Shown piece after piece: positions 4,855 to 62,234 of a stretch of DNA of 64,000 bases. A program made the position numbers and the translations under genes. The DNA is taken from the NCBI GenBank assembly GCA_964576435.1, contig CAZNUP010000001.1, forward strand, positions 442,259-506,258. The letters run 5' to 3'. Source of the DNA: an uncultured Gammaproteobacteria bacterium (lineage in GTDB: Bacteria > Patescibacteriota > Microgenomatia > JAMCZE01). The number at the start of each line of letters is the position of its first letter. Within the stretch, counting starts at the first letter, position 1. The notes below the pieces were generated by a model. The model was not told where the DNA came from. It was given only the letters and a program-made list of their open reading frames with translations, and searched no databases.

Positions 4855-4855
4855 T

Positions 4856-12967: not shown

Positions 12968-12968
12968 T

Positions 12969-18688: not shown

Positions 18689-19513
18689 ATGGCAGATGTA
18701 CTAGTTATCAAACCTCAAACAACTTGGTGGAAAATAAATATACGCGAACTATGGAACTATCGTGAACTGCTTTATATCCTAACTTGGCGTGATGTCAAGG
18801 TTAGATATAAACAGACGGTTCTTGGGGTGTTTTGGGTTGTCATCCAACCATTAGCAACCACCGGTATTTTCAGCATTTTCTTTGGCCAAATAGCAAAGAT
18901 TCCCTCAGATGGTATGCCTTACCCTTTGTTTGTGTTTTTAGGTTTGACTCTTTGGAACTTTTTTTCAAGCGGGGTTTCTGCAGCAAGTAACAGTATTCTC
19001 TCAAATCAAGGCCTGGTACAAAAAATCTACTTCCCACGCATTATCATTCTTGCCTCAGCAATCTTAACTTCGGGTGTAGATTTTCTAGTGAGCTTTTGTT
19101 TATTGATTGTAGCCCTGCTTTTTTATGGCTACATTCCAAATATTGGTCAAGTTTTAATTTTCTTCCCAATCATTTTCCTACTGCTTTTTATGTTGATGTT
19201 AGGTATTGGAATGCTTTCTTCTTCAGTCAATGTAAAATATCGCGACGTTCGTTATCTTTTGCCTTTTGCTATTCAATTAGGCCTTTATGTAAGTCCAATT
19301 ATTTATCCTTACTCAGCAGTAACTGGTTTTAAAAAAACACTTTTAGCCTTTAATCCTCTAACAGGAATTATTGAAGCGTATAGATCGGTGTTAACAAATA
19401 CCCCTGTCAATTTGCCACTTTTAGGAATTGCCGCTGTGGTCTGCGTTGTCTTTTTTGTGGCCGGTCTTTGGTACTTTAGACAAGTTGAATCATATTTTGC
19501 AGATATCGCATAA
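18689..19513 (+). CDS. ABC-2 type polysaccharide export permease (Wzm/TagG/KpsM-like)
   Basis: 274 aa with 6 TM and the ABC-2 signature region RDVKVRYKQTVLGVFWVVIQPL. Confidence 0.7.
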   Translation: MADVLVIKPQTTWWKINIRELWNYRELLYILTWRDVKVRYKQTVLGVFWVVIQPLATTGIFSIFFGQIAKIPSDGMPYPLFVFLGLTLWNFFSSGVSAASNSILSNQGLVQKIYFPRIIILASAILTSGVDFLVSFCLLIVALLFYGYIPNIGQVLIFFPIIFLLLFMLMLGIGMLSSSVNVKYRDVRYLLPFAIQLGLYVSPIIYPYSAVTGFKKTLLAFNPLTGIIEAYRSVLTNTPVNLPLLGIAAVVCVVFFVAGLWYFRQVESYFADIA

Positions 19514-19516
19514 CTT

Positions 19517-20767
19517 ATGGAAACAGTAATCAAAGTTGATCATCTTTCAAAAAAATATAAAGTTGGCGCTAAAGAAGATTATCTGACCTTACGTGACCAA
19601 ATTGCCAAACTAGGCCAATTTCCAAAGTCTCTACTAAGGTGGAATCATGGAGAAGATTTAAAAACTCATGAGTTTTGGGCCTTAAAAGACCTTAATTTCG
19701 AAGTAAATAAAGGTGAAGTAATGGGAATCATTGGTAGAAATGGTGCCGGTAAAAGTACTCTCCTTAAGGTCTTGTCAAGGATCACTGCCCCCACAGGTGG
19801 CCAGGCAACAATTAATGGTAAGGTCATAAGCCTCTTAGAGGTAGGGACCGGTTTTAGTGCTGAAATGACGGGCAGAGAAAACATCTATCTAAATGGCACC
19901 ATCATGGGTATGACCAGAAGTGAAATTAAGCGCAAATTTGATGCCATTATTGATTTTTCAGGAGTCGAAAAGTTCATGGACACACCTGTAAAGTTTTACT
20001 CAAGCGGCATGTACATGCGTCTAGCCTTTTCAGTGGCAGCTCATTTGGAATCAGACATAATGCTTGTTGATGAAGTCTTAGCTGTTGGCGACATCGAGTT
20101 TCAAAAGAAAAGCATGAACAAAATGGAAGAAGTAACAAGAAATAGTGGTAAGACCATTATTTTTGTAAGTCATAATCTGGGGGCAATCCAAAACTTATGT
20201 CATAGGTCAATTCTTCTCAAAGAAGGTCAAATTGATGATATTGGAAAAACTTCAAAAGTTGTCGCCAAATACATTGGCGAGACTACTAAACTTATGAAGA
20301 TTGATTTGAGTAAAAGAAAAGACAGGGATGGTAATGGGAAAATAAGAATAACTAATGTTGATTTTTTTGATTCCAAAGGTAAACCAGTTAAGAATCTAGT
20401 AACTGGTGAAGACTTCACTGCAATTGTGAAGTATAAAGTCTTCGATAGGTCAATAAAATCAATCAACTTTTCGATGCCAATTGATGAGACCGTTTATGGT
20501 AATAGACTATTCCACTTATCAAGTAGTTGGCTAGGTCAAACAATAAAGGTGACAGGATCAACCGGTGTTATAAAAGTTCATTTTAAAAAGATTCCTTTAA
20601 TTGCCGGTAACTATAGTTTCAATGTTTGGGTCGATTACCATGGAGAAATGCTAGATTGGGTTCAACAAGCAGGAAACTTCGACGTAACTTTTGGCGACTA
20701 TTACAATTCTGGCAAACAGCCAGATGCAAGCCAAGGCTCCGTTCTAGTTGACTATATAATTGAGTAA
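19517..20767 (+). CDS. ABC transporter ATP-binding protein (Wzt/TagH-like) with a roughly 170-aa C-terminal extension (putative glycan-binding domain)
   Basis: Walker A GRNGAGKST, signature YSSGMYMRLAF (Wzt/TagH-type) and Walker B LVDE. Residues from about 250 onward are a beta-rich extension. Confidence 0.8.
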   Translation: METVIKVDHLSKKYKVGAKEDYLTLRDQIAKLGQFPKSLLRWNHGEDLKTHEFWALKDLNFEVNKGEVMGIIGRNGAGKSTLLKVLSRITAPTGGQATINGKVISLLEVGTGFSAEMTGRENIYLNGTIMGMTRSEIKRKFDAIIDFSGVEKFMDTPVKFYSSGMYMRLAFSVAAHLESDIMLVDEVLAVGDIEFQKKSMNKMEEVTRNSGKTIIFVSHNLGAIQNLCHRSILLKEGQIDDIGKTSKVVAKYIGETTKLMKIDLSKRKDRDGNGKIRITNVDFFDSKGKPVKNLVTGEDFTAIVKYKVFDRSIKSINFSMPIDETVYGNRLFHLSSSWLGQTIKVTGSTGVIKVHFKKIPLIAGNYSFNVWVDYHGEMLDWVQQAGNFDVTFGDYYNSGKQPDASQGSVLVDYIIE

Positions 20768-22498: not shown

Positions 22499-23985
22499 CC
22501 AGATATTTTTGCACTCTTTTTGACAAGAACTATCTAACACGTGGTTTGGCTCTATATACGTCTTTAGAAAAACATTCTCCAAACTTCAAATTGTTTGTTC
22601 TTTGCATGGATGAAGTCACTTTTGATTTTTTGACAAAATTAAAAAAAGCCAACATAACACCAATTAGGCTTAGTGATTTTGAAGACAAGGAACTTTTAGC
22701 AGTTAAATCTACACGAAATGCAGGTGAATATTGCTGGACCTGCACACCATCTCTTCCGTTGTTTATATTTAAAAAATATCCAAAAATTTCTGAGATTACC
22801 TATTTGGATTCAGATCTTTTCTTTTTTTCCTCGCCAGAACCTATTTTTGATGAATTAGGCTCCAAATCAATAGGAATTATCCCGCACAACTTTTCCAAGC
22901 CTCTATTAGAGAAGTACCCAACTATTCAAAAAACTAGTGGTATTTATAATGTGGGTCTTTTAGTTTTTAAGAATAATAAAGAGGGACTTGAGTGCCTAAA
23001 TTGGTGGAGAGATAGGTGTCTTGAATGGTGTTATGCAGATTATAAGGATGGAAAAATGGGAGATCAGTTATATTTAAACGATTGGCCTGAAAGATTTTCT
23101 TCGGTTTGTGTGATCAAAAATCCGGGTGCTGACTTAGCTGGATGGAATTTAGATAACTACAAATTAACTTTTAAGAACGGTTCTATTTTAGTCGATAATA
23201 AACCACTAATTTTTTACCACTTCCACATGGTGGATATTTATAAAGATGGGACCTTTGATATTAGATTCTACAATTTATCTGAGGAAGTAATATTAAATAT
23301 CTATTTACCATTTATAAATGCAGTCAAAGAAGAATTCCCAAAAGATTTTGAATTTGGTTATGCACATAAACCTACTTTTTCAGAAAAAATAAATTTAAAA
23401 ATAAATTACGTGTTTGGTCAAATGAAAGCACCCGTGTTAAAGTTGTTGGTAGTAGGTCGTAATTTATTTATGAAATTATTAGCAGACATTTATCATATTT
23501 TTTCACCTGACAAAGGTTATCATGTGGCTAGAACCGCTTCTCTTAATAATAAAAAATTAATAAAGGTTGGAAATGGTGCTGATATTCAAGATTATGTGGT
23601 AATTAGAGCATTCACTAAAGGTGTAGATATCGGCAAAAACACTCAGTTGAATCCTTTTACTGTTATATACGATCACGAAAAAATCACTATTGGTGACGAT
23701 GTAATGGTGGGTCCCCATGTCATGATTGCTTCAGGAAATCACGACTTCAAACAAACCGAAAAACCAATGCGCTTTGCGGGAAACCTTACTAAAGGGCCAA
23801 TTTCTATTGGAAATGGAGTCTGGATCGGAGCCAATTCAGTGATTACAGACGGGGTAAAAATTGGAGAAGGGGCTCTTATAGGAGCAGGAACCGTGGTTAC
23901 TAAAGATGTGCCAGCCTATGAGATTATTGTCGGTGTACCTGGAAAATCAATAGGAAACAGGAAAAAACTTCGATGGACAAAGTAA
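22495..23985 (+). CDS. Fusion of a GT-A-like glycosyltransferase (DxD) and a left-handed beta-helix (hexapeptide) acetyltransferase
   Basis: N-terminal [17 protein letters not shown] and YLDSDLFFF (DxD). C-terminal [35 protein letters not shown] hexapeptide repeats. Confidence 0.55.
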
Positions 23986-24749
23986 GCGTCATCATTCCAA
24001 CCTTTAATCGAGCCAAATTTTTAAAAAAAACCATCAAAAGTGTTTTAGATCAAACCTATCCAGTTTATGAAGTTATTGTTTGTGATGACGGCTCCACTGA
24101 TTCTTCGAAAAAAGAAATAGAAAAAATTGCTGACAAAAGAGTTCTTTGGTCAAATGCAGATCACTCAGGTTTGCCAGCAGTCGGCAGAAATAGAGGCGTA
24201 AAACTTTCTAAAGGTGATTGGATTGCATTTTTAGATAGTGACGACAGTTGGGAAGAAACTAAGTTAGAAAGGCAATTTAAAGCGCTTAATGATTCGAAAA
24301 ATTACCAAGCAAGTTCCACCAATGCGACTAATGCCGAAATGTCCCTAAACAAAAAAACTATTGATTTTGATGTTTTGAAAAACAATAACTATATTGTTTG
24401 TAGTTCAGTTTTAATCAAAAAAGCTATTTTTGACAAAACTGGATTATTTTCAGAGAAACCAACCTTGAAATCTATCGAGGATTATAATTTGTGGCTTAAG
24501 ATTTCCCTATTTTCACCGTTTGTTTATTTACAAGAAAAACTAGTACAATACACAAAAGATAACCCTGACAGTGTAAGGTCAATCTACACTTCTGAAGAGG
24601 TTTGGAAGCAGCGTCGTGAAATTTGGCGAGATTTGAAAAATTGGAGCAAATCTGCGAATCTTTCTAACTCACAGAAGCTTAAAATTTGGCAAAATTATTT
24701 ACGATACGAGATTAAAGGAATTGCCCATGACACCACCACCAAAGTTTAA
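23973..24749 (+). CDS. GT2 family glycosyltransferase
   Basis: [14 protein letters not shown]...[12 protein letters not shown] and LDSDD. Confidence 0.75.
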
Positions 24750-25419
24750 ATCTAAAAGTAGACTAACTGGAAAATATCCAAACCCTTCAGAAGGGTTTTT
24801 AGGCAATAACTTAGAACTTAACAACTGGGTTATTTCGGAATTTATAACGAAAGAAATAATCCCTGTTGTTGATACTCATCCATTTCCAATTCCTGAAATA
24901 TACATAATGGTGGGAGCCGTTACTTATTTTAATCCCGATGTGGTTTTTGAGTGGGGAACAAACGTGGGAAAATCAGCTCGCATTTTTTATGAAATAAAAG
25001 AGAAATTTGGCCAACCATTCGACCTATATACAATTGATTTGCCGGACTCAGAGAGTCACGAAGAGTTACCACATAATGATCAATTTGCCCACTTTATTAA
25101 AAACCTGCCAGTAACTTCTTTAAGAGGTGACGGCTTAGAAACATCTTTAAATATTTATAAAGAAAAGTATTCCAAGTCAAAAGCGCTATTTTTCTTGGAT
25201 GGTGATCACGCCGAAGATTCAGTAACAAGGGAGCTGTCTGGAATCTTTGAATCCTGTTCAAATCCTTGTGTCATTATCCATGATACCTTTTTTCAAACTA
25301 ATCCTAACTATAATATTGGTCCGCACAAAGCAATTCAAAGTTTTTTGAAAAGTGATAAAAAGAGAAAAATACTTCTGGAAACTAATTACGGCCTGCCCGG
25401 CATGACCGTACTTATATGA
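24721..25419 (+). CDS. Class I SAM methyltransferase, CmcI/TylF-like sugar O-methyltransferase candidate
   Basis: WGTNVGKSARI and FLDGDHAEDSV...VIIHDT resemble the Methyltransf_24 / CmcI family. Confidence 0.45.
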   Translation: MPMTPPPKFKSKSRLTGKYPNPSEGFLGNNLELNNWVISEFITKEIIPVVDTHPFPIPEIYIMVGAVTYFNPDVVFEWGTNVGKSARIFYEIKEKFGQPFDLYTIDLPDSESHEELPHNDQFAHFIKNLPVTSLRGDGLETSLNIYKEKYSKSKALFFLDGDHAEDSVTRELSGIFESCSNPCVIIHDTFFQTNPNYNIGPHKAIQSFLKSDKKRKILLETNYGLPGMTVLI

Positions 25420-27128
25420 AAATTGGCCTTTTAGTCAACGCTACTGGAAAATATATTTATTTTACTTATCTTCTCTGGGAATCAGTTCAAAAATATTTTT
25501 TCAAAATTCCAAATGTTCAGGTGGAGATGTTTATTTTTACGGATTCAGATGAAGTACCCAAAGGAACTAAGAGAATTTTTCAAGAACATAAGGCTTTCCC
25601 GTATGCAACACTTCTTAGATATCATTATTACTCAAACAACAAGAAAATTTTATCAGACATGGACTACCTTTTTTATTGTGACGCCGACATGGAGTTTGTA
25701 GCCCCTGTGGGAGAGGAAATTTTAGGTGAATTGGTTGGCACAATCCATCCAGGCTTTTTTGAAAGAAACAGATCAGATTTTAGTTACGAGCCCAATCCAA
25801 AATCTAAGGCTTTTATTCCAAAAAACAAAGGATCACATTATTTCTGTGGAGGCTTTAATGGAGGGACTTCTAAGGACTTCTTACTTCTTTGCGATAAGTT
25901 GAAAGAAAATATAGATAAAGATTTAAAAAACAATATTATTGCTATCCACAATGACGAAAGCCACTTGAATCGCTATTTCGTGGATCATAAGCCCACAAAA
26001 ATTCTAGACCCTTCCTATTGTTTCCCAGAAGAACTAACAGAAAAGTTTCAGTCAACTAAAGGAAAGTTATCAGCAGACCCATATACTTGGTTCCCAAAAA
26101 GCCTCAAAAAGTTTGCAACAAGCCCAAGACTCATAGCGAAGTATAAAAACCATGAGGCTTTTAGATATGGCCGTGTAGAGGGTTCGGCTAGACGCGTTGT
26201 CAATGAGACGAAGCGTTTTGCATTTTTGTCTTTGGTGGCTGCTAGATCATTTCCAAGTAGAGTTAAACATGTTTCAAGTAGAGTAGTGTTCAATATATCA
26301 AAAGATCACCCAGAAATATTTACTAGAAATTTTTACAACATTCCATTTTCAAAAGTGTTTCATTTAAATTGTAATGTAGATTTGTTAGAAAAAAATAATA
26401 ATTTACTAGACCTCGTAACCATTGGCTTTAATAATTCGGATGTTATTGAAACGCAAATTAAACTTTTGAATAAAAATTTAACTGATAAATTCTTTTATAC
26501 AGTTGCAGATAATTCATCTAGCACAAAGATAAGTAAAGAAATACAGAACATTTGTGCTAAATATAAGGTGGGTTATATTAAATTACCTCCTAATTTTTTT
26601 AGCGACAAAGGTCTTGGTAACCTTTCACATGGTTCAGCCATGACTTGGGTATTCAAAAACTATATTAAAAAAAGAAACCCAAGATATTTTGGCTTCTTGG
26701 ATCATGACATGTTCCCTATTAAAAAAACTAGTTTGGTTAAATATTTTAAAGCCTCGCCGGTAATTGGGTTTAAACAACCCAGAGAAAACTATTGGTATTT
26801 ATGGGCAGGTTTTTGTTTTTTTGACATGGAGTTTGTTGGTAAAAGAAATTTGGATTTCTTATCTAAGAAATACGGAAATCAAAGACTGGATACTGGAGGG
26901 GCAAACTGGGAGAAAATATATTGTGATGTTGACGCAGATAAATTACCTTCTTTTAAACATAGGTACCTCAATCTAACTGGGGGAGAAATAGCCCAACATG
27001 ATATGGTGGAGTTTTATGGAGATTGGCTGCATTTATTTAATGCCTCTAATTGGTACGCAATGGATGATTTAAAATTTGAAAAACGCTCCAAAGCTTTAAA
27101 AAAACTAATTCACAAATATGTTACTTGA
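25416..27128 (+). CDS. Two-domain glycosyltransferase: an N-terminal GT6 family alpha-1,3-Gal/GalNAc-transferase-like domain and a C-terminal second GT-A-like domain
   Basis: N-domain aligns by eye with vertebrate ABO/alpha3GalT across all core blocks: IGLLVNATGKYIYF, MDYLFYCDADMEF (DxD), TIHPGFF, HYFCGGFNGG, HNDESHLNRYF and KPTKILDPSYC. C-domain has TIGFNNSDVIE...FLDHDMFP (DxD). Confidence 0.75.
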   Translation: MKIGLLVNATGKYIYFTYLLWESVQKYFFKIPNVQVEMFIFTDSDEVPKGTKRIFQEHKAFPYATLLRYHYYSNNKKILSDMDYLFYCDADMEFVAPVGEEILGELVGTIHPGFFERNRSDFSYEPNPKSKAFIPKNKGSHYFCGGFNGGTSKDFLLLCDKLKENIDKDLKNNIIAIHNDESHLNRYFVDHKPTKILDPSYCFPEELTEKFQSTKGKLSADPYTWFPKSLKKFATSPRLIAKYKNHEAFRYGRVEGSARRVVNETKRFAFLSLVAARSFPSRVKHVSSRVVFNISKDHPEIFTRNFYNIPFSKVFHLNCNVDLLEKNNNLLDLVTIGFNNSDVIETQIKLLNKNLTDKFFYTVADNSSSTKISKEIQNICAKYKVGYIKLPPNFFSDKGLGNLSHGSAMTWVFKNYIKKRNPRYFGFLDHDMFPIKKTSLVKYFKASPVIGFKQPRENYWYLWAGFCFFDMEFVGKRNLDFLSKKYGNQRLDTGGANWEKIYCDVDADKLPSFKHRYLNLTGGEIAQHDMVEFYGDWLHLFNASNWYAMDDLKFEKRSKALKKLIHKYVT

Positions 27129-27939
27129 AGTAAAAAAAGTCGCAGCAGATTACAAAAGGAAGATAACAGACATATGCGCACCCGTGTTAGAAGTAAGTCA
27201 CAACGTTTTTGCTGACAAAAGATATGGCGATGTAGGTTTTTTTATAACGAAAAATCCCAAAACAAAAAAATACAAATATTCAAATTGGGGAAGTCGTGAA
27301 TGGGAATATTACTATATGGAAGAAAAATTGAAAGAAATGTGCATAGATGGAAAAGTGATCATTGATATTGGCATTGGAAGGCCAGTAGACTGTGATTTTT
27401 ATAAATTTTATGTTTCTGAAAATTGTTATATGACTGCATTTGATCCTGATGTAAGAATGCCTAAAGTCACAAATCTTTCCAAAAGATGTAAAATTTTAAG
27501 GATGTCAGCTGAAAAGTTACCTTTAAAAAATGAGAGCGTTGACGTTGCAGTCGTTCTTTCCTCGTTTGAACATTTTCCTTTAAATGAATTTTCGAAAACA
27601 ATAAAAGAACTTTTCAGGGTGTTAAAACCGGGTGGTGACTTATTAGTTACGCTAGATTTAACCTTGGATCACCAAAAATCCGCTAGATGGGCAATTTTAG
27701 AAAAAACAATGAATCACCTTTCGAAAATAGAAAATGATCAGAAAATTTCTAAAAAGGGAAAGTTTTTAACAATTGACTCCTTTCTTGGAATGATAAGACC
27801 ATATTTCAAGCCCAAGAGTTCCACAATTTTAAATTTTGATGTAAAACCAAAAGACATGGTATATTCACCAGATTTTAACTCAAACGTAGCTTACCTGCAT
27901 TTATATAAACAAGATGGAAGACCGCCAAAATCACGCTAA
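27118..27939 (+). CDS. SAM-dependent methyltransferase (Methyltransf_11-like)
   Basis: VIIDIGIGRP and LKPGGDLLVTLD motifs. Confidence 0.5.
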   Translation: MLLEVKKVAADYKRKITDICAPVLEVSHNVFADKRYGDVGFFITKNPKTKKYKYSNWGSREWEYYYMEEKLKEMCIDGKVIIDIGIGRPVDCDFYKFYVSENCYMTAFDPDVRMPKVTNLSKRCKILRMSAEKLPLKNESVDVAVVLSSFEHFPLNEFSKTIKELFRVLKPGGDLLVTLDLTLDHQKSARWAILEKTMNHLSKIENDQKISKKGKFLTIDSFLGMIRPYFKPKSSTILNFDVKPKDMVYSPDFNSNVAYLHLYKQDGRPPKSR

Positions 27940-28861
27940 AGACATAGAAAAAGTTAAAAAAGCCGCCAATCGTTTTGGTAAAGTTGTTGTCTGGGGCTTG
28001 AAGTCACATGACAGAGATAGTTTTAGGTATATTCAAAACCATTTCTATACCACTTTACAAAAGTTGGGGATCAACTCAGTTTGGTTAGACGACGAAATAG
28101 ACAACAATAATTTGGTGGAGAAAGGAGACATGGTTTGGGCTGCAAATGTTACAGGAAAGAATCTAAAACTTAAAAAAGATGTCTACTATTGTCTTCATAA
28201 TTATGACAAAGACTTTTATAAAGAATTAAACAAAAAAAACTACCTTATCGTCCAGGTTTATTCAAATGATGCCGACAAGGGGACACAGAAATGGGACTCT
28301 GTAACGAGATTTGATAGGAAAAACCAGGTCTTATATGAACCTTGGGGTACAAATCTACTCCCCTGGGAATTCAAAAACCCAGTATTTCCCAAATCTTCAC
28401 CATTTGTTTTTTGGGTGGGAAGCATTTGGAACAATGACCAAAATCAAGGAAATTTAGAAGAAATTGAAAAATTAAAGAAAGTTTTAGGAAAACATCATGT
28501 TTATTTTCTCCACCCTCGTTATGTCCCAGACTTTATTCATTGGCGTCTTATACGTTGGTCAAGAATCGCTCCAACTGTGGCAGGTAACTGGCAGGTCAAA
28601 GTAAACTATCTACCATGCCGCATGTTTAAGAATATTTCTTATGGGCAATTGGGAATAACCAATGTTAAAAAGTTTGAAGATCTCTTGGGCAGTTCTTTTA
28701 TTAAAAGCGATTCAATAGAAGATTTAGTAGAGAAATCGTTGGCTTTTTCAGAGAAAAAATATATTTCACTAGTTAAAGATCAGCAAGAAATCATAAAGAA
28801 ACAGACATATATGCAAAAAGTAATGAATCTTTTTAAGGGATTAGAAATTGTTTCTTCGTAA
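27914..28861 (+). CDS. Hypothetical protein, possibly a divergent GT-B fold glycosyltransferase
   Basis: FVFWVGSIWNN...HVYF and RMFKNISYG are loosely reminiscent of GT-B C-terminal domains. No firm family assignment. Confidence 0.3.
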   Translation: MEDRQNHAKDIEKVKKAANRFGKVVVWGLKSHDRDSFRYIQNHFYTTLQKLGINSVWLDDEIDNNNLVEKGDMVWAANVTGKNLKLKKDVYYCLHNYDKDFYKELNKKNYLIVQVYSNDADKGTQKWDSVTRFDRKNQVLYEPWGTNLLPWEFKNPVFPKSSPFVFWVGSIWNNDQNQGNLEEIEKLKKVLGKHHVYFLHPRYVPDFIHWRLIRWSRIAPTVAGNWQVKVNYLPCRMFKNISYGQLGITNVKKFEDLLGSSFIKSDSIEDLVEKSLAFSEKKYISLVKDQQEIIKKQTYMQKVMNLFKGLEIVSS

Positions 28862-30372
28862 TGCTGACAAAAACTCTTTATCGCGCGACCATAATCCTCA
28901 TAATTTTATTTTTCTTACTTAAACCATTTTTCTTAGGCTTTTATCATGATGATTGGTCAACTATTGTGGGAACTGTTGTTAAAGGAAGTCCATTTAGTCT
29001 TGATCTTTTAAGTTCTTCAATTCAAGTCTTGTTGTCCAGACCGGTTAGTGGTCTGGTCTTGTTTTCTTTTGCGTCCATAGCTGGAAAGTCTCCGCTCATC
29101 TGGCAATTCCTAACATCCCTATTGGTCTTATTAGGAATCTATGTCTTTTCCAAATTTCTTTCATCTCTAGTCAAATCTTTAAAACTAGAGACGTCTTGGG
29201 AAGAAACTGCTGCATTTGCTGCTTTATTTTTCGCTTTACCTTGGATGGCTGGAGCAACATTCTTCGTAGTTGCTGCTATTTGTGCATTGACTGCAACCTT
29301 ATTTTTTCTTTTATCAGGAATTTCATTATTAAATTACATAAATACGAAGAAGACGAAATGGCTTATTGGGGTAGGAGCATTTTATTTACTAAGTATCCTA
29401 ACCTATGAAGCGTTTTATTTACAATTTATACTTCTAACTCTTCTTGGGACCATTGTTTTAAAGGCAAAAAAAGAAAAAATATCTAATCTAGTTTTAGTTT
29501 TTATAGTTTTAGCCGTCGCTCAATTATTAGGTATAGCCTGGAATCGGTTCACCTTTTCCCTCGCCCCTGCTTCAAAAAGTATTAATCCTGATTTCTTACC
29601 GCTATTTTTATATACCTTAAGAGTTATTCCAGAAAGGTTTCTTTTTAACTTTAAGGAAATATATAGTTGGGCATTTTTATCGCTAATTGCCTACATTTTA
29701 TACACATTAGTTATTTTAAAATCTCTGTTTAGGAAATCATTTCCATTGGGAGTGTCCACATTGTCATTTATTTGTTTAGCAATTTTGGGAATTTGTTTAT
29801 CTGTTTTTCTTTATGCCCTTGCTGGATACGGAGTCGACGCCCATGGGTTAACATCCCGCACAACGTTAGTAATTAGCTTCTATATAATCCTTGCAGTATT
29901 TGTAATACAAGTTTCAAGTAGGTCAATTAACTCGGATGTAAAAATTTTTTATAACTTGACGTTTTGGTTAGTAGTTTTAGCTATTTTTACGAGTTTAATA
30001 TGGCGCTTCCGTGATTGGAAAGTTTCCTGGAGAGAACAAACTTCTGTTATTTCATCTTTTCCAAAAGAAAATTTCAAAAACGCACCAAAAGACACAGTCA
30101 TTATCTATAAAGGTCCTTTTGAATATAATGGCTTAACAGTTTTTCAGTCGTCTTGGGATCTAGCAAGTGCCATAAATTATTCTTATCCGGGTTTAAATCT
30201 TACAGTTCTTCCAAGTCCCGATGTCTGGGCGATAAATTGGGATGGCAAAAATTTAACTCAAATTGCTAAAGGAAACAAATCCACTTTGTGGTCAGGGGAA
30301 ACAAAAAATGTTTGGTTGTGGAATTATCCAAATAAAAATGTTACTAAACTAAATAAGAAATATGCAGAGTAA
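28861..30372 (+). CDS. Polytopic membrane protein with a C-terminal extracytoplasmic domain (unknown; candidate GT-C or polymerase)
   Basis: At least 10 predicted TM helices in the first 380 aa, then a soluble domain. TAATG overlap with the upstream gene. Confidence 0.35.
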   Translation: MLTKTLYRATIILIILFFLLKPFFLGFYHDDWSTIVGTVVKGSPFSLDLLSSSIQVLLSRPVSGLVLFSFASIAGKSPLIWQFLTSLLVLLGIYVFSKFLSSLVKSLKLETSWEETAAFAALFFALPWMAGATFFVVAAICALTATLFFLLSGISLLNYINTKKTKWLIGVGAFYLLSILTYEAFYLQFILLTLLGTIVLKAKKEKISNLVLVFIVLAVAQLLGIAWNRFTFSLAPASKSINPDFLPLFLYTLRVIPERFLFNFKEIYSWAFLSLIAYILYTLVILKSLFRKSFPLGVSTLSFICLAILGICLSVFLYALAGYGVDAHGLTSRTTLVISFYIILAVFVIQVSSRSINSDVKIFYNLTFWLVVLAIFTSLIWRFRDWKVSWREQTSVISSFPKENFKNAPKDTVIIYKGPFEYNGLTVFQSSWDLASAINYSYPGLNLTVLPSPDVWAINWDGKNLTQIAKGNKSTLWSGETKNVWLWNYPNKNVTKLNKKYAE

Positions 30373-31375
30373 ATTTCTAAAATTGCTTTTATGTCCAACA
30401 TGTCAGTCCGACGAACTAAAGGAAGTCCCCTTTACCAAATTAGATGGGATTATCTTTTGTAAAAAATGTCGAACTTGGTATCCAATAGACAACAATTTAT
30501 TGGAATTTTTGCCTGAAAGCTTATGTTATAAAAATGACCGCCGGATTTTCTTTAATCGCTTCAAAAAGAACTTTTCAACTAATAAGATCACATTCGGAAA
30601 AAAGGATGTTAAAACTCTTCGTCAGCAAAAAGATCAGCAAAAGCATTCGGATTGGTATGCTGAAAATGATTTGCAAACATATACCGAGTTTGAACATGAT
30701 AATTTCTGGGAAGCATTTGACTTTGGCGTCTTTTCAAAGTGGTCTAAAAAAATTAAATCGAAATCCCTACTTTTAGATCTAGGTTGCGCACAGGGGAGAA
30801 GCACCTTCAAGGTAGCCGATAAGGATATCGATATTGTGGCTTTTGATATTTCTAAAAAACTTGTTCGTCAAGCCAAAAATAGATACGATCAAAATAAACC
30901 CAAAGCAAAAATATTTTTTTTCATTGCTGATGCAACCCGCCTTCCACTAAAAAGCAGTAAATTTGACTACGTCTTAGTGTATGGTGTCCTACATCATTTA
31001 GATGATCCTAAAAAGACTGCCCATGAAATAGGACGTGTCTTAAAGAATGGAGGTCTTTATTTAGGTAATGAAAACAATACATCAAATCTAAGAAAGATTT
31101 TCGATCAACTTCAAAAAATTAAACCTATTTGGCACGAAGAGGCTGGCGTTGAAAGTCTAATTTCTGAAAAGCGTTTTAAAGAGTTTTTTGGATCATCGAA
31201 GATTAGCTTGGACATTAGATCAACAGTTTATTTGCCACCTCATTTTATAAGATTGTTTCCAATTGCCTTTGGATCAGAGCTAATAAAAGTAACCGATCAA
31301 TTTGCTAATTCATTGCCATTTATAAAAGGTAATGGGGGGCTTCTCATTGTTGAAGGTAGAAAATCCAATAATTAA
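30362..31375 (+). CDS. Fusion of a Trm112-like zinc-ribbon and a class I SAM methyltransferase
   Basis: N-terminal LLLCPTCQSDEL...CKKCRTWYPIDNNLLEF (Trm112/DUF343 pattern). Methyltransferase motif LLDLGCAQGRS. Confidence 0.6.
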   Translation: MQSKFLKLLLCPTCQSDELKEVPFTKLDGIIFCKKCRTWYPIDNNLLEFLPESLCYKNDRRIFFNRFKKNFSTNKITFGKKDVKTLRQQKDQQKHSDWYAENDLQTYTEFEHDNFWEAFDFGVFSKWSKKIKSKSLLLDLGCAQGRSTFKVADKDIDIVAFDISKKLVRQAKNRYDQNKPKAKIFFFIADATRLPLKSSKFDYVLVYGVLHHLDDPKKTAHEIGRVLKNGGLYLGNENNTSNLRKIFDQLQKIKPIWHEEAGVESLISEKRFKEFFGSSKISLDIRSTVYLPPHFIRLFPIAFGSELIKVTDQFANSLPFIKGNGGLLIVEGRKSNN

Positions 31376-31865
31376 ACTTTTCTCCAAAATATTCCTTGTT
31401 CTTTAATGGCTTAAATCCTATTTTTCTATAAAATTTATTTGATTTTTTATTTTTTGATTTGGTGCCAACTATAATTGTTTTAAATTTTTTATCCTTCATG
31501 GCTTTAGAAAAATTTCTCACTAATTTCGTTCCAAACCCATGTCCTCTAAATTTTTCAGAAACTGCTAGGAATTGAATCTCGGGATCATCAAAACTTTCGA
31601 CACTGAAAGTGCCGCGTAAAGCAATTAAATGGCGTAAAACCTGCCAACCAAATTTAAAAAAATATGGATTTTTCATATTGAATCTTATTGGGCCGACTTT
31701 TCCAATTAAAAATCCCTGGGGAAGAAGATAGATATAAATATTTTTTTCAAAAGAAAGATATCCATAAAGATTATGTAAAAACTTTTCACCAAGCTTATTG
31801 AGGTTTGAATCAACTAAATTCGTTAGGTGGAGGTCGACTAGTCTTTTAATGTCTTTTTCTTGCAT
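31344..31865 (-). CDS. GNAT family N-acetyltransferase
   Basis: FLAVSEKFRGHGFGTKLV (R-x-x-G-x-G acetyl-CoA motif). Convergent 32-nt 3' overlap with the + gene ending at 31375. Confidence 0.6.
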   Translation of the reverse strand: MQEKDIKRLVDLHLTNLVDSNLNKLGEKFLHNLYGYLSFEKNIYIYLLPQGFLIGKVGPIRFNMKNPYFFKFGWQVLRHLIALRGTFSVESFDDPEIQFLAVSEKFRGHGFGTKLVRNFSKAMKDKKFKTIIVGTKSKNKKSNKFYRKIGFKPLKNKEYFGEKFNYWIFYLQQ

Positions 31866-32566
31866 ACAACTAATCTATACCAAATATGCAAAAGTCCAAA
31901 GCCCATTCTAAACGTTCGTCTAAAGTTAAAAAATTGCGATTTACCGCTAGTTCGCCAAAAATGAGTGACAGGGACTTCTTGAAATTTAAATCCCTCATCT
32001 GAAATCTTCTTGATCATTTCAGCACAGATTAGTCCCGAATCAGATTCCAAATTTACTTTCTCGAAAATGGAACGTCTAATAATTCTAAAATCACAGTCTG
32101 TATCTCTTATTGGTACATTCAACAAGAGCTTTACTGTGTAGTGGTAAGTCTTTCCAAGTATTACTCTATGAAATGGATCCTGGCGTTTAATTTTGTACCC
32201 ATTAACAACATCGCTTCGCTTTTTTTTAGCTTCCCACAATTTCTTTACCTCTCTTGGGTCGTATTGAGCGTCTCCATCAGTATAAAATACCCATTCTTTC
32301 CGAGCATTTTTAAATCCGGATTTTAATGCTCCCCCGTAGCCTCTATTCTTGTTGTGGGTAATTATCCTAAGTTTTTTAAACTTTTTTTTGAGTGATCGAA
32401 GTATATTTTTTGAACTTTCATCACTACCATCGTCAATGATCAATATTTCATAGTCATTGGTTATTTGGGAAAGCGCTTCATCAAGTCCAGCAACCAGACT
32501 TCCGATTGTTCCCCAGTCATTGAGAAACGGAAAAAAACCTGAAATTGACCCGCTTTTACGCTTCAT
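31838..32566 (-). CDS. GT2 family glycosyltransferase (DPM1/GtrB-like)
   Basis: ILIIDDGSDESS and YTDGDAQYD. Compact size. Confidence 0.7.
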   Translation of the reverse strand: MKRKSGSISGFFPFLNDWGTIGSLVAGLDEALSQITNDYEILIIDDGSDESSKNILRSLKKKFKKLRIITHNKNRGYGGALKSGFKNARKEWVFYTDGDAQYDPREVKKLWEAKKKRSDVVNGYKIKRQDPFHRVILGKTYHYTVKLLLNVPIRDTDCDFRIIRRSIFEKVNLESDSGLICAEMIKKISDEGFKFQEVPVTHFWRTSGKSQFFNFRRTFRMGFGLLHIWYRLVVCKKKTLKD

Positions 32567-32590
32567 ACAAGGCGGATTTTAATATATACT
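32562..32590 (+). promoter_or_regulatory. Candidate promoter (TTCATA-17-TATACT) in the 37-bp divergent intergenic region
   Basis: TATACT at 32585-32590, 13 nt upstream of the ATG at 32604. Overlaps the start of the divergent minus gene. Confidence 0.25.
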
Positions 32591-32603
32591 TCATGAATAC
32601 TCT

Positions 32604-33494
32604 ATGATCATTTCTAAAATAATGGCAGGGCTTGGAAATCAAATGTTTCAATTTGCAGCAGGAAGACGCGCCGCCATTAAAAATAACACAGATTTAAAAT
32701 TAGACATTTCATGGTTTACCGATGACTCCAAAGATACTAAAAGGCTTTATGACTTGGATTCATTCAACGTTGATGTAAAAATTGCTACAAACGAAGAAAT
32801 AAATTCGCTAAAAGGTAAAAGAGGTTCATTTGTTGAAAGAGTTTTCTACACGAGAATTCCCGGATTACCTCAAATATCAAAAAGCTATTTCTTTGAAAAA
32901 AGCTCCTTGGAATATTACCCCAAACTTCTTGATGTAAAAAATAATACCTATTTAGAAGGTTTCTGGAACTATGTAAGGTATTTTGAAGACATAGGAGACG
33001 TTATTAAAAAAGATTTCACTTTGAAAAAACCACTGAGACGAGTAAAAAACGAAATTTTAAAAGAAATTAACAAAAACAAAAATTCAATTAGTCTACACGT
33101 AAGAAGAGGCGATTTTGTAAAAAATAATAACTATGCTAATTATTTCAATATCTTAACTCCTAAGTATTTCGAAGAAGCCGTTAAAATAATTCTTAAGAAA
33201 GTTAAAGACCCGACAGTATTTGTTTTTTCTGAGGATACTAATTGGGCTAAAGAAAATATTAAACTTGGTGAGAAAGTAATATTTGTTGATCCCAATGACG
33301 GTGGCAAGAGCCACGAAGACATGTTTTTAATGAGTAAATGTAGCCACAACATAATTTCAAATAGCACTCTCTCTTGGTGGGGTGCCTGGTTGAATTTAAA
33401 TCCTCAAAAGATAGTTGTAGCTCCTAAAAAATGGTTCAAAACTGACGACGTGGTTATGGATGGAAGAATGCCAGAAGATTGGATACAAATATGA
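32604..33494 (+). CDS. GT11 family alpha-1,2-fucosyltransferase
   Basis: All three GT11 motifs are present: MAGLGNQMFQFAAG, HVRRGDF and SNSTLSWWGAWL. Confidence 0.85.
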   Translation: MIISKIMAGLGNQMFQFAAGRRAAIKNNTDLKLDISWFTDDSKDTKRLYDLDSFNVDVKIATNEEINSLKGKRGSFVERVFYTRIPGLPQISKSYFFEKSSLEYYPKLLDVKNNTYLEGFWNYVRYFEDIGDVIKKDFTLKKPLRRVKNEILKEINKNKNSISLHVRRGDFVKNNNYANYFNILTPKYFEEAVKIILKKVKDPTVFVFSEDTNWAKENIKLGEKVIFVDPNDGGKSHEDMFLMSKCSHNIISNSTLSWWGAWLNLNPQKIVVAPKKWFKTDDVVMDGRMPEDWIQI

Positions 33495-34567
33495 AATTAA
33501 CGGTCCTTCTTCCAGTTTATAATGCGGAAAAGTTTCTAAACGAGGCACTAGATAGCATTTTATCCCAAACATTCAAAGATTTTGAAATATTAGCAATCGA
33601 TGACCATTCAACTGATAGTAGCTTAAAGATTTTAAAAAAATACAGCGACAAGGATAAAAGGATTAGAATTTTAACCAACTCAAAAAATTTAGGTGTCACA
33701 CAGACTTTAAATCTCGGTCTAAAAAATATTCAAACTGAATTTGTTGCCAGGATGGATGCCGATGACATTTGCGCGCCTGAAAGATTTGAGAGACAAATCA
33801 AATTTCTAGACACCCACCAAGATGTCTCCGTTTGTGGGACTTGGATCTATATTTTTACAAAAGTTCCAAAGCTAGGATTTTCCTACATGCCCCCAACAGA
33901 CTCAGATGAAATAAAAGCCTGTTTTCTTTTTGAAAACTGCATCCAGCACCCAACAATAATGTTTAGAGTAGCAGCATTAGTTAAAAATAAAGCTGAATAC
34001 CCGGTCGACTATCCCCACGTAGAAGACTATGCACTTTGGATGAAACTTGTAGACAAAATAAAATTTGCAAATGTCCCCAAACAACTTCTCTATTATAGAT
34101 TGCATTCAACACAAGTCGGAAAAGTTCATTCAAAAAAACAAAATGAAATTGTCTTAAAGGTACACAAAGAATTTATAAAAAAACTAGGATTAACACCCAC
34201 TGCCGAAGAATTAAAGATTCATGAGAATATCTGTTTCGGTATTAATATTCCTCAAAAAGAAAATATTAATAAGATTGAAGCCTGGCTTGAAAAGCTAATT
34301 GAAAAAAATAATAAAGTCCACTACGCATCGGATAAACAGTTTAAAAAAATAGTTGCTTCTAAATGGTTTGCATCTTGTATTATGAATACGAGTCTTGGCC
34401 CTTGGATATGGAGAAGATATTGGGAGTCCCCACTTTCTAGCTATTATCAGCCAACCGCAAGTCAGAAAAAACAATTATTTCTTGAAAGTGTATTCTTTCC
34501 ATACGCCAGGCCAGTGGTAATTAGAGTTAAGCAAAATGCGATCATAAGAAAAATTTTAAGGGGATGA
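33479..34567 (+). CDS. GT2 family glycosyltransferase
   Basis: LTVLLPVYNAEKFL...LAIDDHSTDSS and RMDADDI. Confidence 0.75.
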   Translation: MDTNMKLTVLLPVYNAEKFLNEALDSILSQTFKDFEILAIDDHSTDSSLKILKKYSDKDKRIRILTNSKNLGVTQTLNLGLKNIQTEFVARMDADDICAPERFERQIKFLDTHQDVSVCGTWIYIFTKVPKLGFSYMPPTDSDEIKACFLFENCIQHPTIMFRVAALVKNKAEYPVDYPHVEDYALWMKLVDKIKFANVPKQLLYYRLHSTQVGKVHSKKQNEIVLKVHKEFIKKLGLTPTAEELKIHENICFGINIPQKENINKIEAWLEKLIEKNNKVHYASDKQFKKIVASKWFASCIMNTSLGPWIWRRYWESPLSSYYQPTASQKKQLFLESVFFPYARPVVIRVKQNAIIRKILRG

Positions 34568-36081
34568 AGTTAATTTATGTTTTTATTATTGCCGTAATTT
34601 TAAAATCATTAGTTTGGTCAATTGTTGTCCCTATTTGGCAAACACCAGATGAACAGGCACATTTTGCTCAACTAGCATTCTTTGTTGACAACAAAACCAC
34701 TCACATAAATACAAGCATCGACTTGTCTCAGGAGATTGCAATTACGGAAAGAATGCTTGGCACAAACCGTGATAACCGGGGAAACAATAGTTTTACCTAC
34801 CATTCTGATTACAAAATACCCTATACAAACTCTATAACTGGCAAATATGAGGAAAAATCAATAAATTTACCAAGATCCACAAGAACTACTTATGTAGGAC
34901 AAGAAGCCGCCCATTACCCACCACTTTATTATGTATTAGCTGCACCCTTTTATTATTTAGGCGATAGTGCGTCTCTTATAGACCGTGTCTATCTAGCAAG
35001 AATTCTATCGATTATTCTCTCTGCTCTTTTAGCGGTCGTCGCCTATAAAATTGGTAAATCCATTTGGGAAAACGAGGTTATTGCCATAAGCCTTGGAGTA
35101 GTTGTCAGCTTTCAACCCATGTTGTCCTATGTTTTTGCAGGGATTCATCCAGACAACCTCTTAAATCTTCTCTACAGTTTTGGAATTTTATTACTGCTTC
35201 TTCTTTTAAAGAAGGGGATTAACATTAAATATTTAATTGCGTTAGGAGGTATAGCACTATTAGGAATTTTTACAAAGCCTCTAATGTTTCCATTTTTCCC
35301 ATTAGCAGGTGCAGTGTTTTTCTGGGTATTACTTAAAAAAATGCCAGTTGTGAGACTGGTGTTAACAGCTGCAATTCTTATAGCTCCAATTTTCGTATTC
35401 GTGTTTAAAATAAATCTTCCATATGTCCCCATTGGAGATCAAGGAGTGCTAACTTTTGTTGACTATTTAAAGTTTCGCCTGCCAAAAATATTTTTTGAAA
35501 TTTGGCCTTGGACTTGGGGAGTTTTCAAATGGCTGGGGGTAGTTCAATCTCCACTAACCTTAAAAATAATTACTCGTCTAGCTATGCTTAGTGTTCTTGG
35601 TATGGCCTTATTCATACTTAAAAAAGTTCGCTCAAGAAAGTTTGACTTTGAATGGCAAGCTTTCTGGTTTTTTCTAGTTTCCGTCTTTTCTTTTGGGACT
35701 TATCTAATTCTCTGGGATTACAGGTTAATGGCTCAGACCGGCTTCTCTCAAGGCCTTCAAGGAAGATATTTTTTCCCAAATATTGTCCCACTAATGAGTC
35801 TATTTTTAATTGGTTTTATGGCTTTTGTCCCAAAAAGTTGGACAAAATTTGTGGCAATTGCTGTAGCAGTTCTAATGATTTTCCTCAATTTAATTTCCAT
35901 TTCTCTCTTAACAAGGATTTACTATTCAGCAACAAACTTACATAGTCTAATTTTGCAGATTTCCCAATATAAACCAGTCATCTTTAAAGGGGATATAATA
36001 TTAGTGATCTATGTTTGTTTCTTAGTTTCACTAGGATTTTTATTTGTAGGTCTTGCAAAAAATGCTCAAAAAAATACTTAA
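34564..36081 (+). CDS. GT-C fold membrane glycosyltransferase (DUF2142/PMT_2-like)
   Basis: N-terminal loop QTPDEQAHF (DE motif) and AAHYPPLYYVL (hPPL motif). More than 10 TM segments. Confidence 0.45.
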   Translation: MKLIYVFIIAVILKSLVWSIVVPIWQTPDEQAHFAQLAFFVDNKTTHINTSIDLSQEIAITERMLGTNRDNRGNNSFTYHSDYKIPYTNSITGKYEEKSINLPRSTRTTYVGQEAAHYPPLYYVLAAPFYYLGDSASLIDRVYLARILSIILSALLAVVAYKIGKSIWENEVIAISLGVVVSFQPMLSYVFAGIHPDNLLNLLYSFGILLLLLLLKKGINIKYLIALGGIALLGIFTKPLMFPFFPLAGAVFFWVLLKKMPVVRLVLTAAILIAPIFVFVFKINLPYVPIGDQGVLTFVDYLKFRLPKIFFEIWPWTWGVFKWLGVVQSPLTLKIITRLAMLSVLGMALFILKKVRSRKFDFEWQAFWFFLVSVFSFGTYLILWDYRLMAQTGFSQGLQGRYFFPNIVPLMSLFLIGFMAFVPKSWTKFVAIAVAVLMIFLNLISISLLTRIYYSATNLHSLILQISQYKPVIFKGDIILVIYVCFLVSLGFLFVGLAKNAQKNT

Positions 36082-41047: not shown

Positions 41048-41935
41048 ATGGTCTCAGTAATAATTCCAGTCTATAACGAAGAAGAATATCTCCCAGGCTG
41101 CTTAGAAAGCTTGTCAAAGCAAAAACAAAAAAGTTTGGAAGTAATTGTCGTGGACGATGGAAGTACCGATGGTTCAAAAAAGTTAGCAACCTATTCTCAA
41201 AACCATAAAGGCCCAGGAGCGGCAAGAAATTTAGGTGCAAAACATGCTAAGGGAGATATCTTAGTATTTGTCGATGCAGACATGGAGTTTGACCCAAATT
41301 TTATTAAAGATTTAATTGCTCCAATTCTAGAAAAAAAAGCAGTTGGCACTTTCTCTAAAAATGAGTACCTTTTAAATAAAGAAAATGTTTTAGCAAGGTG
41401 TTGGAATTTAAATCTAGGAAGAGACCCATTGAAAATGGAGCCAAAAGATTATGTCAGCACCGGTTGGAGATCAAAATTAAAAGGCTCCTATAAAAATTTA
41501 GAATCAGGAAAAAGCGAGGAAGTACGAGAAGAAGGTAAACAACACGTTTTTAGAGCAATATTAAAGAACAAGTTTGAAGAAGCTGGTGGTTTTGATTTAG
41601 GAGTTGGGTATACAGATGACTGGTCAATTTCAAGAAAGCTTGGAGAATACGCAACACTTGTGCCAGGCGCAAAGTATTATCACAGAAACCCAGAAACACT
41701 TGGAGAAGTTTGGCATCAAGCAAGATGGTTTGGAAAGAACGAATTCTTAACTGGCAATTTTATTAGAAAATTTTTCAATCTTATCCGCTACAACCCAATA
41801 ACTGGTTTTTTGATTGGAATTTACGGATCAATAAAATTTAAAGAACCCTCATTTTTCCTCTTTAAAATTGTCTATGATTCCGCTGTTTTTGTAAGCGTTT
41901 TTCTGTCATTTTTTGGAGAAAGTAAGAATAAATGA
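41048..41935 (+). CDS. GT2 family glycosyltransferase
   Basis: VSVIIPVYNEEEYL...VIVVDDGSTDGS and VDADMEF. Confidence 0.7.
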   Translation: MVSVIIPVYNEEEYLPGCLESLSKQKQKSLEVIVVDDGSTDGSKKLATYSQNHKGPGAARNLGAKHAKGDILVFVDADMEFDPNFIKDLIAPILEKKAVGTFSKNEYLLNKENVLARCWNLNLGRDPLKMEPKDYVSTGWRSKLKGSYKNLESGKSEEVREEGKQHVFRAILKNKFEEAGGFDLGVGYTDDWSISRKLGEYATLVPGAKYYHRNPETLGEVWHQARWFGKNEFLTGNFIRKFFNLIRYNPITGFLIGIYGSIKFKEPSFFLFKIVYDSAVFVSVFLSFFGESKNK

Positions 41936-62184: not shown

Positions 62185-62234
62185 GATCTTTCTTGGCATT
62201 TAAATCTTAGGTTTCAGCTAATTTTCAGCAAATT

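Follow-up and report, generated by a model that had tools for sequence, protein, structure and literature searches.

The 64-kb window described here (the whole stretch of DNA analysed, 64,000 nucleotides of contig CAZNUP010000001.1) contains a gene for a GT6-family glycosyltransferase and a gene for a GT11-family fucosyltransferase, which are proposed to act in sequence on one surface glycan. In the preferred reading, which is given a probability of roughly 0.6, the GT11 enzyme makes an H-type disaccharide and the GT6 domain completes an A-type trisaccharide, within a conserved module that can be written as Wzm/Wzt...GT2-[GT6::GT-A]...GT11-GT2. This reading draws on family memberships, folds, motifs, specificity residues, conserved synteny and gene fusions. 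An earlier note on this DNA had placed a GT11 gene with its motifs at 32604..33494 and a GT6 gene some 6 kb away in the same locus; both genes were confirmed, and lie on the same strand separated by 5.5 kb (27128 to 32604). A Pfam scan of open reading frames (ORFs) of at least 100 amino acids (aa) across the window returned one GT6 and one GT11 only.

The GT6 gene is an ORF at 25416-27128 (plus strand, 570 aa) that matches PF03414 Glyco_transf_6 at aa 2-209 with E=6.2e-45 and 154 bits (cutoff 25), and the NCBIfam model NF041524 with E=7e-61 and 205.6 bits, under the curated cutoff of 250. A PDB sequence search with the GT6 region found BoGT6a of Bacteroides ovatus (4ayj) at E=3.9e-43, the human ABO transferases at approximately 3e-38 and alpha3GalT at just 2e-26, and the domain is 33-35 % identical to BoGT6a and approximately 33 % identical to the human blood-group A transferase (GTA). 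The AlphaFold2 (AF2) model of the domain has a mean predicted local distance difference test (pLDDT) score of 91, and was matched by Foldseek to BoGT6a with TMt 0.87-0.91 and root mean square deviations of 2.2-2.9 Å, and to GTA and the human blood-group B transferase (GTB) with TMt 0.70-0.74. The GT6 domain extends to approximately residue 252, beyond the end of the Pfam match, and its key residues are D89-A-D91, H111, G113, S123, Y142, C144-G145-G146, H178, E181, A241, K244 and R250. The catalytic Glu (E303 of GTA, E192 of BoGT6a) corresponds to Glu181 within H-N-D-E-S-H-L-N, and the C-terminal lid RLIAKYKNHEAFR (aa 238-250) pairs in the alignment with the vertebrate ABO lid RFVAVPKNHEAIR. 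D89-A-D91 is kept at the place where BoGT6a has N-A-N; among 92 aligned GT6 domains, DxD was found in 68 and NxN in 20. Because this motif is retained, the enzyme is placed in clade 1 of PMC3516806, the prokaryotic and phage GT6 proteins that keep D-X-D, and is presumably metal dependent. PMC3516806 characterises clade 1 as a 'minimal catalytic domain', and the window protein, at 570 aa with a second GT-A domain, departs from a minimal single catalytic domain. The GT6 start codon overlaps the stop codon of the upstream CmcI-like methyltransferase gene (ATGA), and the GT6 start is translationally coupled to that gene. No transmembrane segments were found by a hydropathy scan in either the GT6 or the GT11 protein, which is consistent with cytoplasmic assembly.

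The acceptor site was compared with the contacts of BoGT6a to 2'-fucosyllactose and with the positions A1, A2 and A7 that separate H-dependent enzymes from alpha3GT (PMC3516806). These positions are His, Gly/Ser and a small residue, respectively, in H-dependent enzymes, and Gln, Trp and Trp in alpha3GT, a set that blocks the 2'-fucose (PMC3516806). With His111, Gly113 and Ala241 at the same places, the acceptor pocket of the window GT6 is, as judged from its residues, of the H-antigen-dependent type, like those of GTA and BoGT6a. Further residues of H-dependent enzymes, Thr134, Tyr153, catalytic Glu192 and Lys231 in BoGT6a numbering, are represented by Ser123, Tyr142, Glu181 and Lys244. Trp189 of BoGT6a, an acceptor-stacking residue that is Trp in H-dependent enzymes and alpha3GT alike, is His178 here; this change is common to approximately ten relatives, including P0001, P0002 and P0006, and those checked (such as P0002 and P0006) retain a GT11 neighbour. 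The four prokaryotic GT6 enzymes that have been assayed all require a 2'-fucosylated acceptor, Fuc-alpha1,2-Gal-beta-R (PMC3516806, PMC4202792), and one of the DXD clade, PaGT6 of Parachlamydia acanthamoebae, transfers N-acetylgalactosamine (GalNAc), with UDP-GalNAc as donor, onto H-trisaccharide or 2'-fucosyllactose only, needs Mn/Mg and is inactive on N-acetyllactosamine (PMC3516806).

The donor tripeptide equivalent to human positions 266-268 is C144-G145-G146. In the human enzyme background CGG gives A activity scored +++++ and no B activity (PMC5377540, Table 2), and bacterial 'A' genes carry AGG or CGG, those for B or AB carrying MGS, QGC, MGG, QGG or TGA (PMC5377540). Gly113 is the equivalent of Gly235 of GTA, where GTB has Ser. 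The earlier note had proposed an A/B-like epitope; the A-like part stands and the B-like part is disfavoured, the product being predicted from these residues to carry GalNAc because C-G-G scored A-only in Table 2 of PMC5377540. A B-like (Gal) or mixed A/B epitope, which is regarded as quite improbable, would gain from the fact that this table was obtained in a human GTA background and not in a bacterial DXD enzyme, and from the ability of position 266 alone to switch specificity (PMC5377540); against it stand the strong A score with no B, the different motifs of bacterial B and AB genes, the Gly at the 235-equivalent position and the use of UDP-GalNAc by PaGT6.

The ORF that had been assigned to GT6 does contain a GT6 enzyme, in only the first 252 or so of its 570 residues, and the remainder is a separate domain with a glycosyltransferase fold. 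This second domain (aa approximately 280-570) has no Pfam match even at E=10 and no NCBIfam match. Its AF2 model (pLDDT 93, predicted template modelling score 0.91) found as best Foldseek matches in the PDB the GT-A enzymes TarP, SpsA, GlcAT-P and XylT1, at E~1e-5 with template modelling scores of only 0.35-0.42. Residues D86, S125-H126 and D150-H151-D152 (domain numbering) are invariant in the alignment, D-H-D being aa 429-431 of the ORF. In a library of 1.84 billion proteins the family has 895 cluster representatives at E<=1e-3, mainly standalone proteins of approximately 270-300 aa, and the module was found alone (approximately 270-330 aa), joined to GT2, and joined to a GT6 domain of either the DXD or the NXN type. 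The second domain is a candidate undescribed glycosyltransferase family that is without a Pfam model.

The GT11 gene, an ORF at 32604-33494 (plus strand, 296 aa), matches PF01531 Glyco_transf_11 with E=6.5e-32 and 111 bits (cutoff 23.9). All four motifs defined for the family, which include the GDP-fucose motif HxRRxD (PMC8439653), are present, namely GLGNQMFQ (aa 9-16), HVRRGD (165-170), FVFSEDTNW (206-214) and SNSTLSWWGAWL (252-263), and the motif positions are at least 90 % conserved among 120 homologues. Homologues number 6350, and those with names are called 'alpha-1,2-fucosyltransferase'. A PDB sequence search with the GT11 protein found no solved relative, and NCBIfam held no matching model. 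The family has been described as almost exclusively alpha1,2-fucosyltransferases (PMC8439653).

Because co-location among approximately 30 glycosyltransferase genes proves little, the argument for a link between GT6 and GT11 rests on comparative data. A GT11 gene lies 0.06-5.5 kb from the two-domain GT6::GT-A gene in 7/7 contexts examined: 5.5 kb in the window, 5.4 kb in L002, 0.6 kb in L005/L006, 1.6 kb in L007, 0.9 kb in L075, 63 bp in L087 and 0.8 kb in L088, identity to the window GT6 protein being 58 % for L002, 42 % for L005/L006, 45 % for L087 and 38 % for the NXN-type L088. In most of these seven contexts a GT2 gene is found just upstream of GT6 and another beside GT11; the former is directly upstream in L005, L087 and L088, and the methyltransferase-GT6 arrangement of the window is repeated in L002. 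Wzm/Wzt genes are near GT6 in the window, L002, L005, L087 and L088, and the pair is upstream of GT6 in these relatives. L002 keeps the four genes between GT6 and GT11 (27118..31375 in the window) in the same order, carries GNAT and GT2 fused as one 379-aa minus-strand gene in the position they have in the window, and retains the order GT11-GT2-DUF2142-Polysacc_synt, which is also kept, with insertions, in L005. The closest GT11 homologues, P0123, P0125 and P0126, lie on contigs equal in length (18360, 12443 and 8042 bp) to those of the close GT6 homologues P0008, P0001 and P0007, respectively, with which they very likely share these contigs, in which case the pair would be inherited together.

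A scan of one genome per species yielded 79 GT6 loci. A bona fide GT11 gene lies within 10 kb in 18 of them, half of these (9/18) within 100 bp; gmd or fcl was found in 19/79, and GT11 or gmd/fcl in 34/79. E. coli Gmd and Fcl sequences, used only as phmmer seeds, gave a clean separation of orthologues (>280 bits) from other short-chain dehydrogenases/reductases (SDRs; <85 bits). By record title, the 18 GT11-bearing loci represent one archaeon and no fewer than nine phyla (Patescibacteria, Bacillota, Chlamydiae, Bacteroidota, Cyanobacteria, Pseudomonadota, Verrucomicrobiota, Campylobacterota and Riflebacteria), and in six proteins the GT6 and GT11 domains occur in a single chain, in both orders. 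As far as gene context can tell, the functional link between GT6 and GT11 is well supported, though indirectly. The order put forward in the earlier note, GT11 forming Fuc-alpha1,2-Gal and GT6 using this as acceptor, is supported by this conserved neighbourhood, by the fusions, by the H-dependent pocket residues and by the assayed prokaryotic GT6 enzymes.

After three rounds of iteration of the GT11 hidden Markov model, 29 GT6 loci instead of 18 scored as having 'GT11'; the 11 added in this way were rejected as profile drift because no Pfam GT11 match was obtained for the ten representative ORFs scanned, L012 alone reaching E=3e-7 against the round-0 profile. These loci carry ORFs of approximately 330-350 aa that are marginally like GT11 (L012:15807-16844, minus strand; L056:7746-8798; L024:8894-9880; L028:8274-9251; L050:373-1425; L054:13372-14391, minus strand; others in L019, L037, L052, L060 and L064). 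Several are in Dependentiae/Babeliales metagenome-assembled genomes (MAGs), the rest are labelled only as uncultured bacteria or Pseudomonadota, and 6/11 have gmd/fcl; the ORFs may represent divergent fucosyltransferases, a family working with GT6 in these lineages. Uncultured lineages with small genomes commonly carry DXD-type GT6 genes, which were also found in DPANN-type archaeal MAGs (L009, L010, a Candidatus Woesearchaeota MAG, and L077, archaeon ARS54), where bin contamination is possible; the GT6 gene of L077 overlaps the GT11 gene next to it. An unusual fusion was seen in P0077-P0079, P0086 and P0087, proteins of approximately 669 aa in which an NXN-type GT6 with the MGS motif (B-type in the published table) is joined to a Wzx-type flippase (Polysacc_synt).

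The proposed pathway would build the glycan on a lipid-linked acceptor, with every step at the cytoplasmic face. A GT2 enzyme would provide a beta-galactoside, and GT11 would move L-fucose from GDP-fucose to O2 of the Gal, giving the H-type disaccharide. The GT6 domain, with a divalent cation at Asp89-x-Asp91 and Glu181 as catalytic residue, would attach alpha-GalNAc, donated by UDP-GalNAc, at O3 of this Gal, so that the blood-group-A trisaccharide, GalNAc-alpha1,3(Fuc-alpha1,2)Gal-beta, would result. Another sugar would probably be added by the fused GT-A domain, and Wzm/Wzt would export the product, possibly methylated or acylated. Wzm, Wzt with a Wzt_C domain, GT6 and GT11 proteins that lack transmembrane segments, and a Bac_transf protein are all present, as expected for ABC-transporter-dependent glycan assembly, and the Wzm/Wzt exporter would be the one that handles the GT6/GT11 product. 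The A-type motif may cap the glycan, form a side branch or recur in each repeat; it may be internal or modified, even an internal repeat, instead of terminal, because the GT6 protein has two domains, the pathway is an ABC-transporter polymer pathway, and methyl- and acyltransferases are many. An improbable extension of this idea makes the conserved module a dedicated polymerising system, in which the two-domain enzyme would add alpha1,3-GalNAc and a second sugar in alternation and GT11 would fucosylate every Gal; the cell coat of an ultra-small, host-dependent candidate phyla radiation (CPR) bacterium would then have an A-type trisaccharide in every repeat, serving for host attachment or for disguise from host or phages and not for vertebrate mimicry, and the large DXD-type GT6 pool of CPR, Dependentiae, Chlamydiae and DPANN would be the reservoir that gave vertebrates their ABO family.

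Several points weigh against the formation of an A-type trisaccharide by this pair. Co-location means little by itself in a window with so many glycosyltransferase genes. The acceptor-stacking Trp seen in every solved GT6 structure (Trp189 of BoGT6a, Trp300 of GTA) has become His178, Asn179 in place of His follows it, and a 24-residue insertion (aa 213-236), restricted to the closest relatives, stands directly ahead of the C-terminal lid. The epitope could be masked by the products of the module's five methyltransferase and several acyltransferase genes. Where a Wzm/Wzt pathway has a two-domain glycosyltransferase, that enzyme is typically a chain polymerase (as in the E. coli O9a and Klebsiella O-antigen systems), and this habit, together with His178, the approximately 30 glycosyltransferases and the presence of a Wzx-like flippase as well as a Wzm/Wzt exporter in the window, favours an arrangement in which GT6 and GT11 act on different sugars or glycans. 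GT6 would then use a non-fucosylated acceptor, as do alpha3GalT, iGb3 synthase and Forssman synthase, and form a two-activity polymerase with the GT-A domain, while GT11 would decorate another Gal. Such a division is judged unlikely: the A1/A2/A7 set accommodates fucose, unlike the Trp-containing alpha3GT set, GT11 is nearby in 7/7 contexts and fused to GT6 in six proteins, and the His178 variants P0002 and P0006 still have a GT11 neighbour. That one or both genes are inactive remnants is very improbable, and nothing specific speaks for it apart from the unusual His178 and 24-aa insertion; both ORFs are full length with all catalytic and motif residues, the GT6 start is coupled to the upstream gene, the locus is identical in assemblies from two independent runs (Logan contigs), and the architecture is kept at 38-58 % identity, which implies purifying selection.

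The main weakness of the preferred H-then-A route is the supply of GDP-fucose. Profile and phmmer searches of the 64-kb window found no gmd, fcl or fkp, and none lay within 10 kb of the GT6 gene in L002, L005, L007, L008, L075, L087 and L088, relatives of CPR type. CPR genomes are metabolically reduced. The SDR at 4856-5983 was considered as Gmd or Fcl and rejected, with 40 bits against the Fcl cutoff of 500. It lies in a group at 3874-6585 made up of an HddA-like GHMP kinase (185 bits, cutoff 600), an SDR epimerase/dehydratase of 375 aa that has an internal insertion, and a GmhA-like SIS isomerase (123 bits, cutoff 209), which looks like a partial heptose-nucleotide pathway without a nucleotidyltransferase or phosphatase. 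Were GDP-L-fucose lacking, GT11 would make no H disaccharide; it would use another GDP-6-deoxy sugar or some other donor, or form another linkage, and the motif would be a structural analogue of the A antigen. The absence of gmd and fcl from the window and from the neighbourhood of the gene in CPR-type relatives, and the HddA-like, GmhA-like and SDR genes of a GDP-heptose-like route, all under their family cutoffs, point in this direction. On the other side, gmd and fcl often lie elsewhere than in glycan clusters, motif I of GT11 (HVRRGD), which binds GDP-fucose, is intact and conserved, as are motifs II-IV, and the presence of gmd/fcl at 19/79 GT6 loci in other phyla connects the family with fucose. 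An alpha1,3-fucosyltransferase is known among the members of GT11, at least one (PMC8439653, citing Zhang 2010), in a family that is otherwise almost exclusively alpha1,2-specific. Another donor or linkage for GT11 is considered doubtful.

The window has a G+C content of approximately 0.35 with tightly overlapping genes, and is one very large surface-glycan locus, nearly all of its 64 kb being glycan-biosynthesis genes. Among these are approximately 30 glycosyltransferases (GT2, GT4, GT8 and GT-C/PMT_2), many methyl- and acyltransferases, the Wzm/Wzt exporter, the Wzx-like flippase, a Wzy_C/PMT_2 fusion and Bac_transf. The low G+C content, the tight gene overlaps and the Patescibacteria-group homologues of the DUF4012 protein at the end of the window point to a source that is probably a CPR/Patescibacteria (Microgenomates-like) bacterium. 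The contig of L005/L006 (CAZXMM010000001.1, 950,062 bp), syntenic with the window, bears the label 'uncultured Gammaproteobacteria', which was rejected as a guide to lineage and is probably wrong: a DUF4012 protein 62 % identical to that of the window is recorded with a longest contig of equal length, and its named relatives are Patescibacteria throughout. Features of the GT6-GT11 module and its surroundings are listed in Table 1.

Table 1 Features of the GT6-GT11 module and neighbouring genes in the 64-kb window
Feature	Position	Strand	Basis or remark
Wzm (ABC-2 permease) and Wzt (ATPase, C-terminal carbohydrate-binding Wzt_C)	18689..20767	+	PF01061 E=1e-19; PF00005 E=7e-21; PF14524 Wzt_C E=1.2e-19
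GT2	23973-24749	+	PF00535 E=4e-31
CmcI/rhamnosyl-O-methyltransferase-like	24721-25419	+	PF04989 E=2.8e-9
GT6 catalytic domain	25416..26171	+	Residues 1-252 of the ORF (570 aa); predicted to be a retaining, metal-dependent alpha-1,3-GalNAc transferase on Fuc-alpha1,2-Gal-beta
Second domain, GT-A fold	26253..27128	+	aa ~280-570 of the same ORF; invariant D-H-D; presumed second glycosyltransferase activity
Methyltransferase	27118-27939	+	Pfam
Soluble protein, no assigned family	27914-28861	+	Between GT6 and GT11
Polytopic membrane protein	28861-30372	+	~10 or more transmembrane segments; hydropathy scan
Methyltransferase	30362-31375	+	Pfam
GNAT acetyltransferase	31344-31865	-	PF00583 E=3e-11
GT2, divergent from GT11	31838-32566	-	PF00535 E=1e-26
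GT11 fucosyltransferase, soluble	32604..33494	+	PF01531; motifs I-IV; no transmembrane segment
GT2, directly 3' of GT11	33479-34567	+	PF00535 E=5e-36
Polytopic membrane protein (DUF2142 in relatives)	34564-36081	+	Many transmembrane-like segments
Wzx-like flippase	36053-37327	+	PF01943 E=7e-25
Bac_transf, initiating phosphoglycosyl transferase	61513-62154		Pfam
DUF4012 protein, last ORF, runs off window end	62211-63998		Named homologues (57-63 % identity) all Candidatus Microgenomates, Gottesmanbacteria or 'Patescibacteria group'

Other genes of the window lie outside this module. A GT4 (GT-B) enzyme is split into N-domain and C-domain ORFs (59478-59972 and 59956-60465), which looks like a conserved two-polypeptide enzyme and not a frameshift error because the same split is found in the 58 %-identity relative L002 (1-392 and 389-877). 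A 1565-aa protein at 43266-47963 (minus strand), in the middle of the glycan supercluster, has MutS domain V (aa 885-1013) as its sole recognisable domain, and is followed by a NUDIX protein and then by a 329-aa protein weakly similar to the kinase region of lanthionine synthetase. A GT2 and DUF2304 pair at 12302-13298 presumably resembles streptococcal GacI/GacJ. Six PMT_2 (GT-C) membrane proteins include a 1036-aa Wzy_C+PMT_2 fusion, the coordinates listed with these proteins being 61-3128, 9454-10743 (minus strand), 39951-41033, 41932-43242 and 54286-57396. Together, the GT2+DUF2304 pair and the PMT_2 proteins suggest extensive extracytoplasmic glycosylation of a Gram-positive-style wall polymer.

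Bacterial ABO-like enzymes are thought to drive the natural antibodies against A and B, and are relevant to the proposal that the vertebrate ABO family had a horizontal origin. Prior evidence came from a few species, gut inhabitants and pathogens, and from one enzyme of Parachlamydia. The window locus and the 79 related loci indicate that the DXD form is common in uncultured, small-genome and often host-dependent lineages, that it is repeatedly linked or fused to H-synthase GT11, and that in one clade it is a two-domain enzyme in an ABC-transporter pathway. They also yield a candidate A-synthase with Cys-Gly-Gly and a His for the stacking Trp, and give a first hint at the surface glycans of CPR bacteria. 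Nothing known is overturned, and the relevance is mainly to ABO evolution and CPR cell surfaces. The structure had been called unexpected in this lineage, and a search of the literature on CPR/Patescibacteria for GT6, blood groups or fucosyltransferases gave no relevant result, which agrees with that view; DXD-type GT6 genes are nevertheless widespread in uncultured small-genome lineages, and their clade has been known since 2012.

The GT11 and GT6 route to A/B mimics is already established in E. coli O86, Helicobacter mustelae, B. ovatus and Parachlamydia, and the window is, on the reading preferred here, another instance of it. This instance differs in its CPR-like lineage, the fusion of a DXD GT6 to a GT-A domain that has no Pfam family, the conserved Wzm/Wzt-linked module and the Trp-to-His change. 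Human GTA shares with the window enzyme D-x-D, HPGF(Y/F), x-G-G, DESHLN, the lid A-x-x-K-N-H-x-A-x-R and the same predicted donor and acceptor, but the window enzyme has no transmembrane or stem region, has Cys144 for Leu266 and His178 for Trp300, and is predicted to be cytoplasmic and to act on a lipid-linked bacterial glycan. BoGT6a (PDB 4ayj/4ayl), a blood-group-A synthase, is the best sequence and structure match, and has the same His/Gly/Tyr/Glu acceptor and catalytic residues and a small-Gly-Gly donor motif (AGG, CGG in the window); unlike the window GT6 it has N-A-N, is metal independent and carries a C-terminal membrane-binding BHB domain, not a glycosyltransferase domain (PMC3516806). 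The clade 1 enzymes PaGT6 and the GT6 of cyanophage P-SSM2 share D-X-D with the window GT6, which differs in its fused GT-A domain of approximately 290 aa, its 24-aa insertion, its His for the stacking Trp and its CPR-like host. Over the GT6 domain, identity reaches 51 % with L018, a locus from Parachlamydiaceae that likewise has a GT11 gene, 3.7 kb away. The O86 antigen is made by a Wzx/Wzy pathway. In E. coli O86 (GT6 WbnI and GT11 WbwK) and in H. mustelae (BgtA), one glycan locus encodes both an H-synthase of family GT11 and a GT6 enzyme, which act in sequence on Fuc-alpha1,2-Gal-beta-R (PMC4202792; PMC5377540), but O86 has a B (Gal) epitope made by an NXN-type single-domain GT6, whereas the window GT6 is DXD-type, two-domain and Wzm/Wzt-linked.

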